From: Octopus vulgaris | Lineage: Eukaryota | NCBI GenBank assembly: GCA_951406725.2 | Contig: OX597822.1 | Coordinates: 34,472,001 to 34,536,000 of the forward strand | Direction: 5' to 3' | Length of the DNA stretch: 64,000 nucleotides | In this document: positions 900-62,411 of the stretch, piece after piece | How the letters are laid out: each line of letters starts with the position of its first letter | Position numbering within the stretch: position 1 is the stretch's first letter | Notes under the pieces: generated by a model | Databases searched by the model: none | Seen by the model: only the letters and a program-made list of their open reading frames with translations | Told to the model about the DNA's origin: nothing | Position numbers and translations under genes: made by a program

Positions 900-1900
900 A
901 CCCTTCAATTTATTCTATGAGACCGGATGAATAAACTGCTCAGAACTAGGATTTTCCCTAAGTATAAAACTAACTACTGGTTCCCTTGTCATGAATGTTC
1001 GTAGGATGCAGTCTATGAGTTTGCTGCATTTAAAGGTTAGTTTGATAATATGGCTGATGGAAAATGTATCATTTGACATGATTACACCTAAGTCCTGTAT
1101 GTCATTGGTGCTCTGAATCATTATGTTACCTTGTGTCAAATATTGCGATTTGGGTGAATTCGTTTGTAATGTAGAAGCTGAAATTTTGATGTACTATTTT
1201 TTGTATTTTTTCTGGTTTAGCTCCTAGCCATCGATATTCTTTGTAATTCATTCCCTGATGTATACGACGTATTACAGGTAACTTGGAGAGAAATCCATTT
1301 GCAGTAATTGGTTGACTCCTACCGTATAGGGAGTTAAAGAACCATTCTCCGACATTTCCTGTGATACCAAGATTTCTTAAATTATGACAGATGATTCAAT
1401 GATCAGTCTTGTCAAACGCCTTAACAATATCAAGGTTTTAACAGTCAATGATCTTTCCCCTTAAGAGATTATTAGAGGTAGTGTTATGATGCTGTAAGAA
1501 TTGTGACAGGCAACTTCGTTCAGTCCGGAACCTATACCGAGTGTCATCTAAGTTGTTTTCCTCCAGGTATGTTATTACTTTTTGTCTTCGGACAAGGCAT
1601 TGGATAATTTTAGACGTGTAAGACGTGAGGGAAACAGGTCTGCAATTTTTAGCTTCAGCACTGCTAACACCTTTGTACCTATATAGGTTTTATTGTAGCT
1701 TCTTTCAATAGTCTCGGGAATATGGCAGTATCTGGTGAGTTTTGAAATAGTACCTTTAATGATTTCATGAGGTGGTGGAAATTCTTCAGAAGGTTTATAG
1801 CATTATTTGATCCAGTGCAAAATTATTTACCATCCTCAGTCACAAAGCATTTTAAAAATGTTCCTAAAAAGACTACACAAGGCTGTATTCGCAATTTTTT
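900..1900 (-). mobile_element. Decayed non-LTR retrotransposon RT fragment (CR1/L2-like)
   Basis: Broken minus-strand frames contain NCRPVSLTSYTSKI, DIVKAFDKTDH and DLGVIMSND...HI...ILRTFMTRE motifs. Confidence 0.75.
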
Positions 1901-8035: not shown

Positions 8036-8151
8036 CTAATATACACAATGCATGCTTTTATGAGCTATTAATAATTTCATATGTTGAGAACTACCTCAAA
8101 CATATTCAACAGGCACATATCACAAAGAACTAGAAATAATATTATATTATA

Positions 8152-22003: not shown

Positions 22004-22292
22004 CTTCCTCTGTGGACCTTATAGATGGTAAAGGCTCCATAGATGAGTGGGTTTAGCATGCAGTTGGAAGTCCCGAGAGTGAAGAAGTATATGACAGTGC
22101 GACTGTTGTCCCATTGGAAGAATGCAAAACCTAAGAAGATGATGTAATATGGCGTCCAACAAAGAATGAAAGCTGCGACAATCACTGCACTCATACGCGA
22201 TGATTTCTTCCTGGCCCTTTCAAAAAGATGTGTACGAATTTGTCCATGGTTCACACTATAACACGACATCGATGTGGGTGAAATTGGAGTAT
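22004..22292 (-). CDS. GnRHR: oct-GnRH (corazonin-type) receptor, internal exon encoding ICL3-TM6-TM7
   Basis: Acceptor ttttgcag|AT (G+AT = Asp) and donor GGAAG|gttagt; 289 bp. Encodes (D)TPISPTSMSCYSVNHGQIRTHLFERARKKSSRMSAVIVAAFILCWTPYY...TSNCMLNPLIYGAFTIYKVHRGR, with the CWxPY and NPxxY class A GPCR motifs. Confidence 0.95.
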
Positions 22293-23242
22293 CTGCAAAA
22301 GGAAAAGATAATAAACATAATTAAAAGTACATCAGAACGGAATTGATTTAAATTTTTGCGATTAATTTGCGTGTAATAAAATTGAGGTAATGCAATGCAC
22401 AATTGCTACAGTAATTTCAGTATTGGGTCGCATTCTCAGGTATCACACAGTGTTAACCAATTAAACAATTCATCAGTAGTCCTGAAGGTGGCCATCCGAT
22501 CTTTTCTTCTCAGCATGTCATTCAATAAAGTAATAATCATGAAATAGCCATTTAATTGAATAAACTTACTTTGTTTAGGGCTATTACACTTATATCATCC
22601 ATTCTATTGAATTAGAATTTAAAACAATGTAGCTCGTATTTAAGTGAAATCAGAGACTCTGTTTAAGCATATATTGCTGTTGCATATAGCACTTCAAATA
22701 TCCATTCTATCAAATTGGAATTAAAGCATGTATTTCCAATTGAAGTAACAATAACATTTATAGCTTTGACTGTTTCGCTGCTGATATTATGCCTTAGAGC
22801 ATTTGTGTAGAGATTTCCTTCGCGAAGAAACAGATGGCATATAATGAAATCGCTGTATGGAAGAAAAACCTGGATGCAATATATAACAGCGATTTTGTCA
22901 AATTGCTGCTCTGAAGTCAGATGGAAAACGAATGATGTCAACGATATTTACAGGACCTCTCTGAATCGTGTCCTTTATGAGGGTAAGTTACAATTTTTCT
23001 GGGGCGCAGACTGGCTTCAGAAAAAAAAAATAGAAGACAACATAACACTGTGATATATTAGAAACTTAAATAGCCGCTAGACGATTGACAGCGTGAAGCT
23101 GATTAATAAGGGGCTACTTATAGTTTAAATACGGTAGAGATACTGATATTAGCAAGTCCCTATACGCACAACATATATACGTGTGTGTATGTATTCGTGT
23201 ATGTGTGTTTGTGCGTGTGTGTCTGTTTGTGTGTGAGTGTGA

Positions 23243-23281
<39 letters not shown>

Positions 23282-23440
23282 TGAGAAAGTTGGTGTGTGA
23301 ATGCACCTGGTTGGATATATAGAAAATAGAAAAGAGTGAAAAAACCACAGAAGGCTTGTTTTATAAGGTTAAAAGAATATATTTAAGTCGTAATGTTAGA
23401 AGAATGTTATAAAATTGTGCATATAGTAACATAGCTTTTG

Positions 23441-23479
23441 GAGAAATTACCGGTTTCGTGTTAACTTTTCAAATTTCTC
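23441..23479 (-). ncRNA. Ultra-minimal hammerhead, U3-A8 variant (left arm)
   Basis: GAGAAAU UUGAAAA GU-UAAC-AC GAAAC CG GUA^AUUUCUC. Confidence 0.7.
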
Positions 23480-24131
23480 AAATCTCTTTACCTACATCGT
23501 GTCATGTCTTCGTTATGCAGTGCAAAGAAGAGTTACAGGCAAGGGAGGTAATAAGCGATTTCTTCCGGTATAAGGGAGATAATCGCTTTATATTTCTTTT
23601 CCCCTTTTTTTAATGGGATGAGTTTCTCTGTATAAGAATGTTAGGATGGTTAAGTTCAGGCTTATATTTTTCAATGAAGAATGTTTCCTTGTTTAATCTA
23701 ATTTCTGTTGGCGTGTCAATAGAACATTGGTAGAATGGAAAGATTAAAAATTGTGGTAGTAGTTGCTTTGCGCATTTCTCAACAGATTGCATTCCCAGAA
23801 TACAGAATGATACCCTTTAGTGAGCATATTGAGAAATGCGCAAAGCAACTACTACCACAATTTTTAATCTTTCCATTCTATCAATGTGCTATTGGAACAC
23901 CAACAGAAATTAGATTAAACAAGGAAACATTCTTCATTGAAAAATATAAGCCTGAACTTAACCATCCTAACATTCTTATACAGAGAAACTCATCTCATTA
24001 AAAAAAGGGGAAAAGAAATATAAAGCGATTATCTCCCTTATACCAGAAGAAATCGCTTATTACCTCCCTTGCCTGGAACTCTTCTTTGCACTGCATAACG
24101 AAGACATGACACGATGTAGGTAAAGAGATTT

Positions 24132-24170
24132 GAGAAATTTGAAAAGTTAACACGAAACCGGTAATTTCTC
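24132..24170 (+). ncRNA. Ultra-minimal hammerhead, U3-A8 variant (right arm)
   Basis: Identical to 23441-23479; perfect 7-bp stem I. Confidence 0.7.
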
Positions 24171-24650
24171 CAAAAACTATGTTACTATATGCACAATTTT
24201 ATAACATTCTCCTAACATTACGACTTAAATATATTCTTTTAACCTTATAAAACAAGCCTTTTGTAGTTTTTTCACTCTTTTCTATTTTATATATATATAT
24301 AAATTCAAGCAAACATGAAAGCATGCTGGTAAAACGCTGTTCCTCTAAATGAAAACCTTACCTATCATTGTGATTTAGTGGCACAAAGCAAACCAGGGTT
24401 TGCCGTCCACCCAAGAAAACACATAGTAAATGATCCACAACCACTCTAGAAAACTGAGTACCCCATATTGTTCACTTTACCAAAGGGTTTGTAAGGTACC
24501 AGCAGGCCTCAAGTGACACAAATATGTCCATAGAACATAGTTACCGCTTTATTTTACTGAACCCTCATGTGTGGCTCACGACGAGAGAATCAGCCATACA
24601 TACATGAATACATACATACATACATACATACATGCATACATACACACACT

Positions 24651-24784: not shown

Positions 24785-24837
24785 GCGCCTGAGGAATATG
24801 TTAGAGTTTTCTTAACATATGAAACTATTAGTAAAGC
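24785..24837 (+). ncRNA. Hammerhead motif with degenerate stem I
   Basis: CUGAGGA AUAUGUUA...UAACAUAU GAAAC UAUUA GUA. Confidence 0.6.
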
Positions 24838-25511
24838 TTTAATACACGCATTGTCACCTTTAAATGAATAATTTATCTCTCACCAGTACTTTATATATAC
24901 ATACATATACACATATATATACATACATATACACCTACCTACCTACCTACCTACCTACCTACCTACCTACCTACCTACCTACCTACCTACCTACCTACAT
25001 ACATACATACATACATACATACATACATACATACATACATACATACATTTATATGTATGTATATATTGTTGTATCTGAAAAGACCCCGAACGGGTCAAAA
25101 CATGTGCTGTATCCAATAAAGTCTATTACACACTCCATCTCCTATTCTATTAATACTGTTACCCCAACAGCCACTACGCAGTCTCGGTAATAAATCTACG
25201 GATAACAACAGGTAATCAAAATCCATTTATACATTTTGTACAATTTCTCCATTATATATATATATTCTTTTATTCTTTTACTTGATTCAGTCATTTGATT
25301 CCGGTCAGGCAACAGCACCGCCTTTTAGTCGAACAAATTGGCTCCAGGATTTATTCTTTGTAAGCCTAGTACTTATTCTATCGGTGTTATTTTCCCAACC
25401 GCTAACTTATGGGAGCATAGACACACAAGCATTGGTTGACAAGCGATGGCCGGGAGGGGGGTAAACACAGACACACAAATATATTCATACCTACCTACAT
25501 ACATACATACA

Positions 25512-25593
<82 letters not shown>

Positions 25594-25644
25594 GTGTAGG
25601 AAGAAATGGAGCTGAACGAAGATTTAACAAAATTCCTTTTTATT

Positions 25645-25730
25645 ATTTTCTACATATGTTTCAAAGGCTGCAAAGTCCCTAATTCGGATTGAATAAGGAG
25701 ACCATTTTGCAGCCTTCTCTTCAGGAAAAT
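25645..25730 (-). ncRNA. Intact type I hammerhead ribozyme motif (C3-G8)
   Basis: AUUUUC CUGAAGA GAAGGCUGCAAA...UUUGCAGCCUUU GAAAC AUAU GUA^GAAAAU. 6-bp stem I, 12-bp stem II, palindromic stem III. Confidence 0.85.
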
Positions 25731-26622
25731 CCAGGAACTTAATTCTCCAACAAAATGCACATCAAACTTGTCGACAAACGCTCGCGATGAGCCCATGGGA
25801 TAAATGGCACAAAACTGTCTCTCAATATGCGTTGACGCCAGGCTGGGTGAAAGCCGACGAAAAAGTCCGTTGAGATAAATCAAGGTAAAAATCCGGCTAA
25901 CAGGGGGGAGGGTTACAGGAAAATCAAAGAGTGAGAATGTATTCTGTATGACTGGTGTTAATATTCGAATTGTTTTAAGAATGAGTGCTATAGTGTTTGG
26001 GTGTGAGAAATTGCCTACATGTATGTGTGTGTGCGCCTATGTATGTGAGGCAGTGTGTTTAGAAGGCTGCAAGGGAGAGAGATATAGCAGCTATTAATGG
26101 TCAAGCAGCTGAAAAAAACTGTGTCTGTGTGTTCGTCTGTAACCAGTTGGTAGAGGGATGGAATGTCAATAATGGGGGGATACAGTGACATCCCTGAAAG
26201 CAGTTCTAGATAAGTAGCAGTTCTTACGCTAATAGGGGAGTGATTTCCCCTTACAAATTTAATTCAAAATTTTTTTCTTTTCTTAGGAAATCAAGGGGTT
26301 AACTATCTTAGACTTCATTGGAATGCAAGAAATGTGTGCCGCTTCCAGTGCGGGCATCTAAAAGAATTTTGCACAATCGAGTTAACAAGTTGCACTCGGG
26401 ATAGTTCCGAGTATATATATATATATATATACGACGGGCATCTTTCCGCTTCCATCTACCAAATCGACTCAGAAGGCTATAATAGAAGGCACTTACTCAA
26501 ATTGCCACGCAATGGGATTGAACCCAGAAACATGTAATTGTGAAGCAAGTTCCTTACCACACATATAGTTTATAGATTAGAGGCTGGTATTCTCTGTATA
26601 GATACACTTTATAATGCTCATA

Positions 26623-32862: not shown

Positions 32863-34147
32863 CAAGGGTGGGTTGAAAAATTCAAAGGCCGACTTTGAAG
32901 GAATGATGCTAAAGCTGCGAAATTTTTCACGCATTAATTGCAACACTTATTAATAACTGTAATGTGTCTTTTTAGATAACTGACATCTGACCGTTCAAAG
33001 AACACTTCAGAAGTAACTAGTAGCTACTTGTCTTGAAAATGGACAGAATTTGGTATTATGGTGTTATTAAGTAACTGCAGAAAAAGGGTTACCCCTCAAG
33101 GACATTCATGATGACGTGCTTACCACATCAAGAGATGACACTCCAGTTTTATCAACAGTGCAAAAGTGGGCTACTGAATTTAAGAGGGGAAGGGAGAGTC
33201 TTGAAAATGACCCAGGATCTAGACATCCTACAACTGCCACCACCGAGGAAAATATTCAGCATTTTCACCTCATGTTGATGGATGATATGCGATTGACTAT
33301 AAATTTGAATGGCCAATGCTGTTAGCATTTCCCCTAAGGGAGTTGAGAATATTCTGCACGATGAAATTGGCCTGACAAAGGTTTCCCGCTCGGTGAGATC
33401 CACATCTTTTGACACCTACTCAGAAGTGCATCGGGTTGATTACATCACGGGATAATCTGACACTGTTTGGAGTCGGATCCAGCTGGTTTCCTTGAACGTT
33501 TCCTAACCGAGGTTGAGTGTTGGCTTCATCACTTTGAGCCAGATACAACGCTACAATCCATGCAGTGGAAGCATTGCACCTCATCTGCTCCAAAGAAAGC
33601 CAAGGTTATTTCGTCTGCAGAGAAGGTGATAGCCTCAAATTTTTAGGATGCAAAAGGCATTGCATTTGCTGACAATCTTCAAAAGGGCCACATCATTAAT
33701 GGAGAGTCTTATGCCAACTTGCTGAGGCAGTTACGAAAAGCTATCTACAGTAAACGCTCAGGAAAACCTACAGAATGAGTCTTGTTTTATCAGGACAATG
33801 CTCTGGCACACAAGTCCTTGGTAACAATGGCTTCTATGCATGGCTGTGACTTTGAACTGGATGATCATCCTTCATGTCATCCTGATGTTTTCCATCTGAC
33901 TGTCATTTTTGACGAAATCCACTTGGCTGGGAAGCGGTATCGTAGAGATGATGACGTTATATCTATCGTTGATGGCTGTTTTGTCCAACAGAATGAAAGC
34001 TTCGTCACCAGCGGGGTAAAAGCAGTGGAATACCGATGGAACAAGTGTATGGACCGCAAGGGACACTATACTGAAAAATAAACCTCATTTGGGTCACATT
34101 GCATGAGAATATTTTGGTCAGCCTATGAATTTTTCACTCCACCCTCG
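32863..34147 (+). mobile_element. Full-length but decayed mariner transposon
   Basis: TA|caagggtgggttgaaaaattca...tgaatttttcactccaccctcg|TA TIRs with TA TSD. Broken transposase at 33039-34081 includes KWATEFKRGRESLEND, WLHHFEP and FYQDNALAH. Confidence 0.92.
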
Positions 34148-40285: not shown

Positions 40286-40517
40286 GAGAGAGAGAGAGAG
40301 CGAGGGAGAGAAAGAAAGGGAGAGATGGAAAGAAAGAATTAGATGTTTATTATTTTGTTTTTCTTTGTTTTATTATTATGGATGTCCGTAGCTAGTAGGC
40401 GCAAGCTTATGGGCGTGATAAAAGCAAATCACAATAAATCAAATGAAAGTGAGAATAAAAAGCAAAACAACAACAACAACAACAACAACTTATTGACTAA
40501 AGACTGAAATGACTTAC

Positions 40518-40719
40518 CGTGAAACTGTCTCGATGTTTTAACAATAGTCTTTAAAATGAGCAGGTAGGATGTAACCATTATTATGAGCGGGATAACAAAC
40601 AGCAGAATCAGTGACGATGCCGAATAGAGTTGCTTTTGCCAAAGTGCATTATAACTATCGCGGCACTGGTGAAACATTCCTTGTCTGAACATTTTTCGCT
40701 GTTCTTGGAAAATAACAGC
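40518..40719 (-). CDS. GnRHR: oct-GnRH (corazonin-type) receptor, internal exon encoding ECL2-TM5-ICL3 start
   Basis: Acceptor ttttaatccag|GCT and donor CACG|gtaagt; 202 bp, phase 0 to phase 1. Encodes AVIFQEQRKMFRQGMFHQCRDSYNALWQKQLYSASSLILLFVIPLIIMVTSYLLILKTIVKTSRQFH, which matches my recollection of Octopus GnRHR. Splices in frame to the exon starting at 22292. Confidence 0.93.
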
Positions 40720-41274
40720 CTGGATTAAAAGGTTGTAAAAGAAAGCAAAACAAATGTATTAATACACAAGCGAGTATGAAATAGTTTGATACTTAACGAC
40801 AAAAGAGAACAAAAAAAAAATTATGTATAAATTTTGAGTATTAAGTGGTTTCATACTTAACAATCCATTTCATTCATATGCTGTAATGTCCAGCCCGTTG
40901 ATTGATGCTTCGATTTATTGATCCATCCATCAATGAATCTATCATTTTATCCATTCGGCTTAATTGTATGTGTGCATTCACGTAAATTTTTGTCTGTGTA
41001 CGTGCCTTTATATGGATAGCATCTCTGTCTGTCTGTCTGTCTCTCTCTCTTTCTGTCTGTCTGTCTGTCTGTCTCTCTTTCTGTCTGTCTGTCTCTCTCT
41101 TTCTGTCTGTCTGTCTGTCTCTCTCTCTCTTTCTGTCTGTCTGTCTGTCTCTCTCTCCATTTCTGTCTGTCTGTCTCTCTCTCTGTCTCTCTTTCCTTTT
41201 ACATATCCCTCTATTTCTCTCTCTATCTATCAATTAACCTGGCTATCTGCCTTTCTCTCTGCCTACCTCCCAAC

Positions 41275-59246: not shown

Positions 59247-60549
59247 GTGTGTGTTTGTGAGTCGGTATACATACATATATACATACACATATATATATGT
59301 ATGTATATATGTATGCATGTATATATGTATATATATGTGTGTGTGTATGTATAAATGTACTTACTATATCGCTCCCTCATGTCGAAGCGTTAGATTAAGA
59401 AGTCGTAACGAAACAGATATCGGGAGTCATGTGGTAGTAGAGGAAGAAGACGAAGATACACACACACACACACACATTATTTTTATTTAGGCGCAGGAGT
59501 ACCTGTGTGGTAAGTAGCTTGCTTATCAACCACATGGTTCCAGGTTCAGTCCCACTGCGTGGCCTCTCTCATTTCAAGTAGTTTACTCCTGCTATTACCA
59601 CCACACTTTCTCCTACTTTCTCTTTGCAAGTGTGAAACTATTAATGTGAAAGTATTATATAACAGGGATGAGCCATTAATAGTGGTCATCCTTTTTGCTA
59701 GAGGAAGATCCGCTATGGTCTTATATGCTACACCACTGGTTTTCAATTCATATTAATCAAATTAATATTCAATTTTTCACCCTTATTATGTGTGTGTGTG
59801 TGTGTATTAGCAATTCGTATAAAATTGCATCAATGACTTGAACTTGAATAAGTGGCTTCACATAAATGGGGATAAATTAAAAAAGGTTTGTTGTTATTAT
59901 TATTACTGTTTGACTATTGTAATCACGTTTGTTGGTTCCTCGTCAGGGAAACGTTGTTGTGTTGCATTTGTTAAATAATTGTAAACTGTAACCTTGTAAA
60001 TTGTAAACTTTCGGAGAAGGGGAAATTGACAATATTTTCACCGTCTTTACGGAAGCATTTTTGTTAAAATGCCTTCGATAGAAGAAAGTCCAAAAATGAA
60101 TTTCGCTGCAGCCGTACACTTCTATACAAGAGGGAGGACAAGATCCAATTGATCGAAATTGCAAGAGATGGGCCTACAATTCCAGTCTGTCATATATTTT
60201 GAGTATTGTTATCACTAGCGATATCAAGATATAACTTTGTATTTTGTATTTTATGTGTAGATGTATATATATAGATGTACATGTAATATGTACACATATA
60301 TATACACATATATACATGCATAATATATCTACCCATACACACATACGCACACACACACACATACATAGGGGCAGGTGTGGCTGTGTGGTAATAAACTACG
60401 TTCTAAACACATGGTCCTGGGTTCAGTCCCACTGTGTAGTGACTTGGCATGTGTCTTCTGCTGTAGCTTCAGACCAACAAAAGCCTTCTCAATGGATTTT
60501 GTACATATATACAGGCATGCATACATATATATACATGCATACGTACATA

Positions 60550-62411
60550 TTCGGCATAAACACTCTACCACTACAACTAATAACTGTTGGGAACACTTTC
60601 AAACCTGCCTTACATTCGAACCAGAATCTCAAAAACATTGTCCCCTTCAGCGCCAAGCTCAACTGCTCTATCCTGACGTGGAGGGTATCAGCAATGAAAT
60701 CTATAACAAAACACTCATTGACATTGAAGAAAGAATTGCTAAACTGGATGGAAATGAATTGTCGACGTATGGCCTGCCACAAACATTCAGATCAGGGTCA
60801 AATAGCCTTCCCACTGCTGTCATTCGTGAAACAACCTACGACACCCAAGCGCTTTCAAAGTACATTGTTGAAAATGAGCCTAAATTACTTCCGGACCAGC
60901 TGCAGGCCTACAGAACTATTCTTAACAGTGTACGCCAATGCGAGGGACGAATCTTCTTACTCGATGCTCCTGGAGGGACAGGAAAAACATTTATTATAAA
61001 GCTTCTCCTTGCAGAAGTTAGGTAGCATCAGTACATTGCAGTAGCTGTAGCCTCCTCTGGCATTGCAGCTACTTTGTTACCCGGTGGCAGGACAGCACAC
61101 TCAACTTTTAAACTCCCTCTCAATTTAGCAGCATCCGAAATGCCTTCATGCAACATCAACAAAAGCTCAGATCAGGGACAAGTACTTAAAATATGTTATG
61201 TAATTGTCTGGGATGAGTGCACTAAGGCTCACAAGGGAGCTTTGGAAGCATTAGATAGAGCCCTGAAAGACATCCGAGACTGTCAGGCTCCAATGGGAGG
61301 TGTAACGCTTCTGTTGTCAGGTGATTTCAGGCAAACTCTTCCTGTCATTCCGAAAGGCACTAGAGCTGATGAAGTTCAAGCATGCCTAAAGTCCTCTACC
61401 CCGTGGCATCATGTTACAATCTTTAGTCTCACCACTAACTTGAGAGCTCAGCTACATGGCGACAAAATGTCCACAATGTTTGTATAGGACATTTTGACAC
61501 TTGGTGAAGGCAAGATGCCTCTCGATGCTGCAGGACAAATGGAAGTGTGGTCATTTTCCTCTGTTGTTAATTTTGTAAATGACCTCAAAAACAAAGCCTT
61601 TCCCAACTTCACACAAAACTACCAAAATCACAATTGGCTGTGTGAAAGAGCAATATTAGCTCCAAAAAACGTCGCTGTTAACAAAATTAATCAACAGCTA
61701 ATGCATTCTCTTCCCGGCACTATACACACTTATAAGTCTGTTGATACAATTCCAGATATAAATGAAGTTGTGAACTATCATCCTGAATTTCTCAATTCAC
61801 TGGAGCCCTCCTGGACTACCTCCACACATATTACCACGTAAAGTTGGAACTCCTGTAATGCTACTCCGCAATCTGGAACCACCAAGACTTTGCAATGGAA
61901 CACGACTGGTGATAAAGAAAATCATATTACACGTTATCGAGGCGATCATACTTTCTGGATGTGGAAAAGGTGATGACGTCTTTATTCCAAGATTTCCTCT
62001 TACTCCATCAGGAGCAGAAATTCCATTTACATTCAGAAGACTGCAAATCCCCCTTTGCCATGTCCATTAACAAATCTCAGGATCAAACCCTCTCTGTAGC
62101 TGGTCTTCTCTTGGAAGAGCCCTGCTTCTTGCATAGGCAACTGTATGTTGGCTGCTCAAGAGTAAGAACCAAAAGAAACCTTTTTGTATATGCTACACAA
62201 GGAAAAACAAGGAACATTGTTTACAACGAAGTGTTATAATCTCAACAGCCAGGAGGTATATACATGATCCCCTTTTTTTAACAAACGTCATGTACTTTCA
62301 TGTATTTATATTAATATACATATATTTGTGTGTGTATCCATATATATATATAACAGAAAAGTCTAATTCTTCTATTGAATGTAACTGGGCAACGCCGGGT
62401 ATCTCTGCTAG
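60550..62411 (+). mobile_element. 5'-truncated Helitron
   Basis: Helicase remnant followed by a GC-rich subterminal hairpin (gggcaacgcc) and a CTAG|T terminus at 62408-62412. No Rep domain seen. Confidence 0.88.
60560..62239 (+). pseudogene. Helitron PIF1-family (SF1B) helicase pseudogene
   Basis: Motifs LDAPGGTGKT, GGRTAHSTFKLP, IVWDEC, GDFRQTLPV, RLCNGTRL, FAMSINKSQ and QLYVGCSRV. In-frame stops at about 61023 and 61485; frameshifts at about 61820 and 62050. Confidence 0.93.

Follow-up and report, generated by a model that had tools for sequence, protein, structure and literature searches.

Type I hammerhead ribozymes have been described in the pseudo-LTRs of Penelope-like elements (PLEs), where helix II is long, helix III is palindromic and the G10.1-C11.1 pair is conserved; most of them occur as single dispersed copies (Cervera and De la Pena 2014, PMC4209133). 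The supplement to that work includes mollusc examples from Lottia and Crassostrea, and the one supplement file that we searched contains no octopus hammerhead. As reported there, single min-HHRs do not cleave, and dimers and trimers cleave poorly in vitro. The ribozyme of Poseidon is described as cleaving only with the element's protein, and that account gives no RNA-seq reads starting or ending at the cut site (PMC11167929). A bias towards insertion into microsatellites has been described for several PLE clades (PMC8557442), and one supplement row assigns 6.83% of O. vulgaris to PLEs in 190 families (PMC13282606). Our literature searches found no paper describing hammerhead ribozymes in octopus, though a listing in supplements is possible.

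The locus considered here lies in a 64-kb stretch of Octopus vulgaris DNA, which we call the window, and it very probably represents the 3'-end type I hammerhead of a multi-copy repeat, likely a 5'-truncated PLE, situated in the (TA)n of a GnRH receptor intron and predicted, as a single drifted copy, to cut little or not at all. It extends to octopus the class described in 2014, and does so with a family that has an unusually long helix II.

The hammerhead motif and its receptor intron

A descriptor scan of both strands of the window found a single strict type I hammerhead, which reads from 25730 to 25645 on the minus strand and is composed as follows.

25645 to 25730, minus strand: the whole type I hammerhead (descriptor scan and shuffles)
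25725 to 25730, minus strand: 5' arm of stem I, AUUUUC, pairing with GAAAAU over 6 bp
25718 to 25724, minus strand: core C3 to A9, CUGAAGA, without a bulged base after A9
25663 to 25717, minus strand: helix II, 12 bp that begin with G10.1·U11.1, and an apical insert that is itself base-paired
25651 to 25662, minus strand: GAAA, palindromic stem III and A17 of the GUA triplet
25645 to 25650, minus strand: 3' arm of stem I, GAAAAU
25630 to 25740, minus strand: predicted helix I extension, a 2x7 internal loop and then 8 bp, 25740-25733 with 25637-25630 (MFE structure only)
25639 to 25644, minus strand: AAUAAA directly behind stem I, the sole AAUAAA of the element on the minus strand

The motif has the CUGANGA, GAAA and NUH elements arranged around three helices and is open at helix I, as expected of a type I hammerhead, and all of its core positions are intact. 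The 12 bp of helix II are formed by 25717-25706 with 25674-25663, the GAAA is at 25662-25659 and the self-complementary stem III, ACAUAUGU, is at 25659-25652, such that the cut is predicted between 25651 and 25650, after the GUA triplet. The pair at 10.1/11.1 is G·U here and not the G10.1-C11.1 of the Penelope-type class, and no base is bulged between A9 and 10.1, as one is in the min-HHR consensus and in other motifs of the window at 615 and 50069. None of 200 dinucleotide-preserving shuffles of the window, made in 1-kb blocks, reached a motif with a stem I of at least 6 bp and a stem II of at least 10 bp, and any loose type I match was found in 17 of 200 window shuffles. The Rfam models returned no hammerhead at the gathering score across the whole window, where the only matches were microsatellite-driven miRNA ones, and none at E<=10 across 24800-26300; the long helix II insert may explain this miss.

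The surrounding gene is an octopus GnRH receptor. A tblastn search with the octopus receptor GNRHR_OCTVU (P0002, Octopus vulgaris) places residues 164-231 at 40722-40519 with 100% amino acid identity and residues 230-328 at 22299-22003 with 98%, both on the minus strand, and the exon at 22292-22004 matches 7tm_1 (E 1.6e-11) and is 99% identical to GNRHR_OCTVU. The two exons that bound the intron are these.

40518 to 40722, minus strand: GnRH receptor exon upstream of the intron, residues 164-231 (tblastn)
22004 to 22292, minus strand: GnRH receptor TM6-7 exon downstream of the intron (7tm_1, identity to GNRHR_OCTVU, tblastn)

The splice sites (GT at 40517 and AG at 22293) are canonical and of matching phase, giving an intron of ~18.2 kb with the hammerhead ~3.35 kb before the acceptor. 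An earlier note made from the DNA letters had listed a full core, a stem I, a 12-bp stem II, an apical insert and a self-complementary stem III, and had put the motif on the same strand as the receptor exons about 3.4 kb upstream of the TM6-7 acceptor; each of these parts is found in its place on the minus strand, and both the sense orientation and the distance are borne out. Since the motif is sense within the receptor intron, it would be part of the transcribed pre-mRNA. The remaining exons of the receptor were not found in the 64-kb window, so that the entire window may lie inside the gene. Receptors of this type are classed with corazonin receptors too.

Two further features of this intron can be recorded here. 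The AAUAAA at 25639-25644 is sense to the receptor gene, and with it the element may provide a cryptic polyadenylation signal within the intron. A fold-back of ~980 bp at 23315-24296, with two arms that are 94% complementary, follows the hammerhead at a distance of 1.3 kb. In the receptor pre-mRNA its arms would pair into a long duplex some 1 kb short of the acceptor, a plausible substrate for A-to-I editing.

The dispersed repeat that carries the motif

The hammerhead forms the 3' end of a dispersed repeat of ~815 bp, which lies between (TA)n tracts that meet it at 25590 and ~26411 and has the following recognizable parts.

25592 to 26410, minus strand: dispersed repeat of ~815 bp with a (TA)n tract on each side; probable 5'-truncated Penelope-like element (pseudo-LTR)
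25592 to 25644, minus strand: 3' tail of the element behind the stem I region (from the ends of other copies)
25703 to 25705, minus strand: ATG within helix II (CAAAATGG context), its frame broken after 8 codons; possibly a retroelement ORF start
26016 to 26072, minus strand: degenerate 3' half of a second hammerhead, 399 nt upstream of the hammerhead (17-nt match, 88%)
26283 to 26408, minus strand: candidate decayed ORF end, resembling a GIY-YIG C-terminus by eye and without a search match

The upper end of the repeat is set by the flanking (TA)n. We probed public sequence data with 25592-26400, and the stretch is present in 20 of the 24 listed runs (four organism codes, ten studies). Contigs aligned at 80% likeness number 1273 in run X1 (organism A), 559 in X2 (organism B), 303 in X5 (organism C) and 98 in X12 (organism A), and in all four runs they are spread over the identity bands and cover 30 of 30 bins; contigs from the other organism codes are not assignable to the receptor locus as against paralogues, and no listed contig spans the stretch. 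None of the listed runs is on record as RNA, although X12 may be. In X1 the bands of 99% and above, 95-99%, 90-95% and below 90% hold 324, 322, 405 and 222 contigs, respectively. Summed depth in this run is 3e5-6e5 over most of 25592-25753 (6e4 in the bin of the helix II insert) and only 3e3-9e3 over 26132-26400, a drop of ~100-fold away from the hammerhead that is matched by a comparable fall from the hammerhead end in X2, X5 and X12; summed depth is no copy number, and what it supports is the presence of many divergent copies, commonest at the hammerhead end. By self-BLAST of 25592-26400 against the 64-kb window, no further copy of the family is found, and only microsatellite-like bits are returned.

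The ends of other copies are informative. Among the matches listed (24 of 212), copies end at ~25592-25605 and join TA, GAT or ATT microsatellite, which places the end of the element ~59 nt past the predicted cut site; the copy in the receptor intron has (TA)n on both sides. The loose ends of other copies include C11.1 together with a GUC triplet (2 of the 24 listed rows, aligned by eye), and copies with C11.1 are represented by one contig in X12 and by ten contigs in X2, with an agreement of 0.77; the variant rows listed (40 of 122) include neither of these two positions.

The repeat is thus dispersed and multi-copy, with its hammerhead near the 3' end, 5' truncation and insertion at microsatellite or AT-rich sites, and by analogy with described elements it is likely a 5'-truncated PLE. 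The ORF of a PLE encodes a telomerase-like reverse transcriptase (RT) and a GIY-YIG endonuclease. No RT or GIY-YIG match was obtained, so the family is assigned by its anatomy and not by a protein match. The 128-aa minus-strand frame over the motif has no protein match. At the far end, a 41-aa frame whose stops were replaced by X matches neither RT nor GIY-YIG, and a 38-aa frame that starts at the ATG of stem II has no Pfam match. These RT and GIY-YIG searches covered fragments of 38-128 aa, and loss of the domains would not be surprising in so short and decayed a copy. Three of the nine variant sites listed in the 41-aa frame fall at third codon positions (counted by hand), so coding constraint is not supported, and a common variant removes one of the stops. 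By analogy with Poseidon (PMC11167929), the helix II ATG is possibly a retroelement start codon. At a coverage of 6.83% (PMC13282606), ~1.2 kb of PLE sequence is expected in an intron of ~18.2 kb.

Several other readings were set aside. A plus-strand ORF start at the far end, suggested by eye, was dropped, as the depth gradient and the tail point to a minus-strand element, and a type II arrangement with the upstream half motif was rejected because stem I is mismatched and the GAAA is mutated in this copy. Two metagenome pattern matches (L001, L002) are 21-nt chance occurrences within bacterial genes, with no surrounding hammerhead, and the motif pattern has no matches in contigs of viral or bacterial genomes.

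On the preferred reading, a PLE would have been reverse-transcribed from near its tail, stopped after ~815 nt and inserted into a (TA)n tract, and early-stopping reverse transcription of this kind would give rise to many short hammerhead-bearing ends. The hammerhead of the parent element would overlap the ORF start in the pseudo-LTR, and its activity would serve the element's own RNA processing, being switched on either by the pairing of two copies through the palindromic stem III in a tandem transcript or by the element's protein. The solitary copy in the intron would since have drifted, with G10.1-C11.1 changing to G·U.

An alternative is that the repeat is a non-autonomous retrozyme- or SINE-like element and not a truncated autonomous PLE, with the motif still a passenger. 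The ~815 bp hold no confirmed coding remnant, the degenerate hammerhead half lies 399 nt upstream, which is similar to the monomer size of animal retrozymes (PMC7229834), and an origin from PLE pseudo-LTRs has been reported for the retrozymes of animals (bioRxiv 10.64898/2026.07.22.740005). The first 12 nt of the 26016-26072 half could pair without mismatch (100%) with the 5' arm of helix II. A change of A to C at 26061, seen in some copies among the variant rows listed, restores the GAAA of this second half. A retrozyme is composed of tandem 150-400-nt units that each carry a complete hammerhead, whereas there is no tandem array at the element locus and the two 400-nt halves share no repeat beyond the 17-nt match. 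Together with the steady fall in depth with distance from the hammerhead, a pattern expected of 5' truncation, and the lack of canonical loop-loop geometry, this makes the non-autonomous origin quite unlikely, and we retain that of a truncated PLE.

The junctions of the element have two additional features. A small inverted repeat, ACTCGG...CCGAGT, is present at 26395-26412, where the upstream end of the element meets (TA)n, and inverted repeats of this kind have been reported at the 5' ends of Penelope pseudo-LTRs (PMC3846280). SINE-like repeats flank the element at 25253-25593 and 26412-26563, and each recurs several times in the window.

Predicted folding and consequences for the receptor gene

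The region folds better than its shuffles on both strands (z -3.9 and -3.8), and in an 86-nt context 11 of the 12 pairs of helix II have probabilities of 0.9-1.0. The active monomer fold has probabilities of 8e-3 in 86 nt, 3e-3 in 161 nt, 2e-4 in 501 nt and 3e-4 in 819 nt, although nearest-neighbour folding ignores the non-canonical hammerhead core and these values possibly understate activity. As a monomer, stem III consists of two pairs only; neither this nor the G·U at 10.1/11.1 is mentioned in the earlier note. The MFE structure of two co-folded copies is a double hammerhead, at -64.2 versus 2 x -27.9 (-55.8) kcal/mol, and in these computed folds the motif has the palindromic helix III, weak monomer and double hammerhead of a dimer-acting ribozyme.

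Fast canonical hammerheads have a helix II of ~4 bp that places loop 2 against loop 1, or else a pseudoknot, whereas here there are 11-12 uninterrupted pairs, which makes the usual loop 1-loop 2 contact impossible. A U at position 11.1 would slow hammerhead cleavage; a literature search returned no measured effect of U11.1. The loop 1-loop 2 contact is reported to be worth orders of magnitude in rate at low Mg2+ (PMC3088659), and GUA is described as a natural cleavable triplet that is somewhat slower (PMC1636495). The weak stem III alone is not decisive, because in some invertebrate retrozymes, given tertiary contacts, a 2-bp stem III with a tetraloop is enough for monomers to cleave efficiently (PMC7229834). 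From the folds we predict that the solitary hammerhead at 25645-25730 cuts little or not at all. Given that the window holds no second intact family copy in cis, that helix II is overlong and that the 10.1/11.1 pair is G·U, the intron would normally be spliced uncut.

It is nonetheless conceivable, if unlikely, that a copy with this same origin cuts a measurable share of the nascent receptor transcripts, whether alone, by pairing through its palindrome with family transcripts in trans, or with the assistance of Penelope protein, and thereby lowers or reshapes receptor output as an unselected side effect. The core is intact and sense-oriented, helix II is stable and helix I is predicted to be extendable, the dimer is the predicted MFE structure for two copies of what is a very abundant family, and protein-assisted cleavage has been shown for Poseidon (PMC11167929). 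These considerations are opposed by the predicted active monomer fold of less than 1%, by the poor cleavage of min-HHR dimers and trimers in vitro (PMC4209133) and by the reported absence of RNA-seq read ends at the Poseidon cut site (PMC11167929). The upstream 12-nt complement is also able to compete for helix II, with a probability of 0.69 in a 501-nt context versus 0.02 in an 819-nt context. If cleavage of the pre-mRNA were true, a neuroendocrine receptor gene would be acted on by the ribozyme of a retroelement, which is rare, and the case would offer a handle on the in vivo role of Penelope hammerheads.

How often such motifs occur bears directly on their meaning. With a relaxed descriptor, which asks for helix II, GAAA, a palindromic stem III and a core that deviates at no more than one position, there are eight hammerhead motifs in 64 kb, five on the minus strand and three on the plus strand, as against a mean of 0.39 and a maximum of three in window shuffles, with none of 300 reaching eight. 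Eight motifs on both strands at a density of ~1 per 8 kb mean that an intron of ~18 kb should contain one in sense orientation even if it does nothing for the gene, and this base rate provides a yardstick for claims of a ribozyme in an intron in cephalopods. The motifs represent several families; the pair at 8112 and 24789 seems to belong to a single one. An ATG lies within helix II or close to it in several of the motifs.

The seven other motifs are at 615, 8112, 56632 and 61697 on the minus strand and at 24789, 32189 and 50069 on the plus strand, and a ninth, degenerate motif was seen by eye at 25075 on the plus strand, followed by AATAAA on its own strand. The 61697 motif lies inside a PIF1 helicase remnant and may be a chance occurrence; broken PIF1 frames (E 5e-45 and 9e-6) extend over 60369-61838 on the plus strand and are likely the remnant of a Helitron. 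Mariner transposase-like fragments with weak HTH matches are present at 33071-34081 (plus strand), and broken frames that by eye resemble a CR1-type LINE reverse transcriptase are found at 918-1802 (minus strand), just upstream of the 615 motif.

Two proposals would give the motif a role in the host. That the hammerhead has been co-opted and is maintained by selection as a regulator of how the GnRH receptor is spliced or how much of it is made, by analogy with amniote RECK and C10orf118, seems very improbable: its sense orientation and intact core and the precedents of domesticated intronic hammerheads (PMC3088659, PMC6155905) would suit such a role, whereas the motif is still inside an intact repeat copy, lacks the C11.1 and C17 seen at loose ends of other copies, does not have the canonical tertiary architecture of the domesticated examples, and has similar motifs around it on both strands, at ~1 per 8 kb, such that one sense copy is expected. 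A second proposal, which we regard as highly unlikely, is that octopus pre-mRNAs carry a Penelope-family hammerhead every ~8 kb and that abundant family transcripts, through the palindromic stem III, or a Penelope protein would trans-activate sense intronic copies. Transposon activity would then tune the output of host genes, the GnRH receptor among them, and the 12-nt anti-helix upstream would serve the element as an off switch.

The motif is probably an ordinary passenger and not a control switch for the GnRH receptor, a function on the host gene is unlikely, and as the matter most likely stands the motif is of little consequence. The earlier note described the hammerhead as intact, which is correct for the completeness of its core positions but is an overstatement in view of the G·U at 10.1/11.1, the overlong helix II and an active monomer fold below 1%. 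It also suggested that the nascent pre-mRNA could be cut, with an effect on the receptor; the sense orientation within the intron is as it supposed, but a gene-specific role does not follow from what is the end of a high-copy repeat and one of eight motifs in 64 kb.

Comparison with described hammerheads

The amniote intronic hammerheads of RECK and C10orf118/CTCL (PMC3088659, PMC6155905) resemble the octopus motif in being sense type I hammerheads in the intron of a host gene. They are, however, described as conserved across mammals or amniotes and active in vitro, whereas the octopus motif is a predicted ribozyme in a high-copy repeat. Animal non-LTR retrozymes (PMC7229834; bioRxiv 10.64898/2026.07.22.740005) share with it the type I topology, a weak palindromic helix III and a non-coding repeat, but they are reported as 150-400-nt units in tandem, whose helices are of canonical size and whose loops make contact. 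The octopus hammerhead has a long helix II and stands alone, as a dispersed copy.

The Poseidon element PAc of Anolis carolinensis (PMC11167929) has its hammerhead in a pseudo-LTR, begins its ORF within stem II, ends in a short tail and inserts at AT-rich sites; the octopus element resembles it, with the helix II ATG as the possible start codon. PAc is an intact element that is cut 26 nt after its start codon, whereas the ATG of the octopus element is 54 nt before the predicted cut, and the octopus frame is broken and has no protein match.

The closest likeness is to the metazoan Penelope-like hammerheads, the min-HHR and palindromic-helix-III variants (PMC4209133). Like the octopus motif, these are type I with a full core and a longer helix II, have a small palindromic helix III that suits dimers, occur as dispersed single copies and have U-rich 5' and AU-rich 3' flanks. 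The octopus motif departs from the min-HHR consensus in having no bulged base after A9 and G10.1·U11.1, its helix II has 12 bp and an apical insert as compared with 7-8 bp in the Schistosoma examples, and its helix I has 6 bp with a predicted extension. On the strength of this analogy and of the computed folds, we consider that the octopus motif is of a kind that would work as the Penelope-type hammerheads do.
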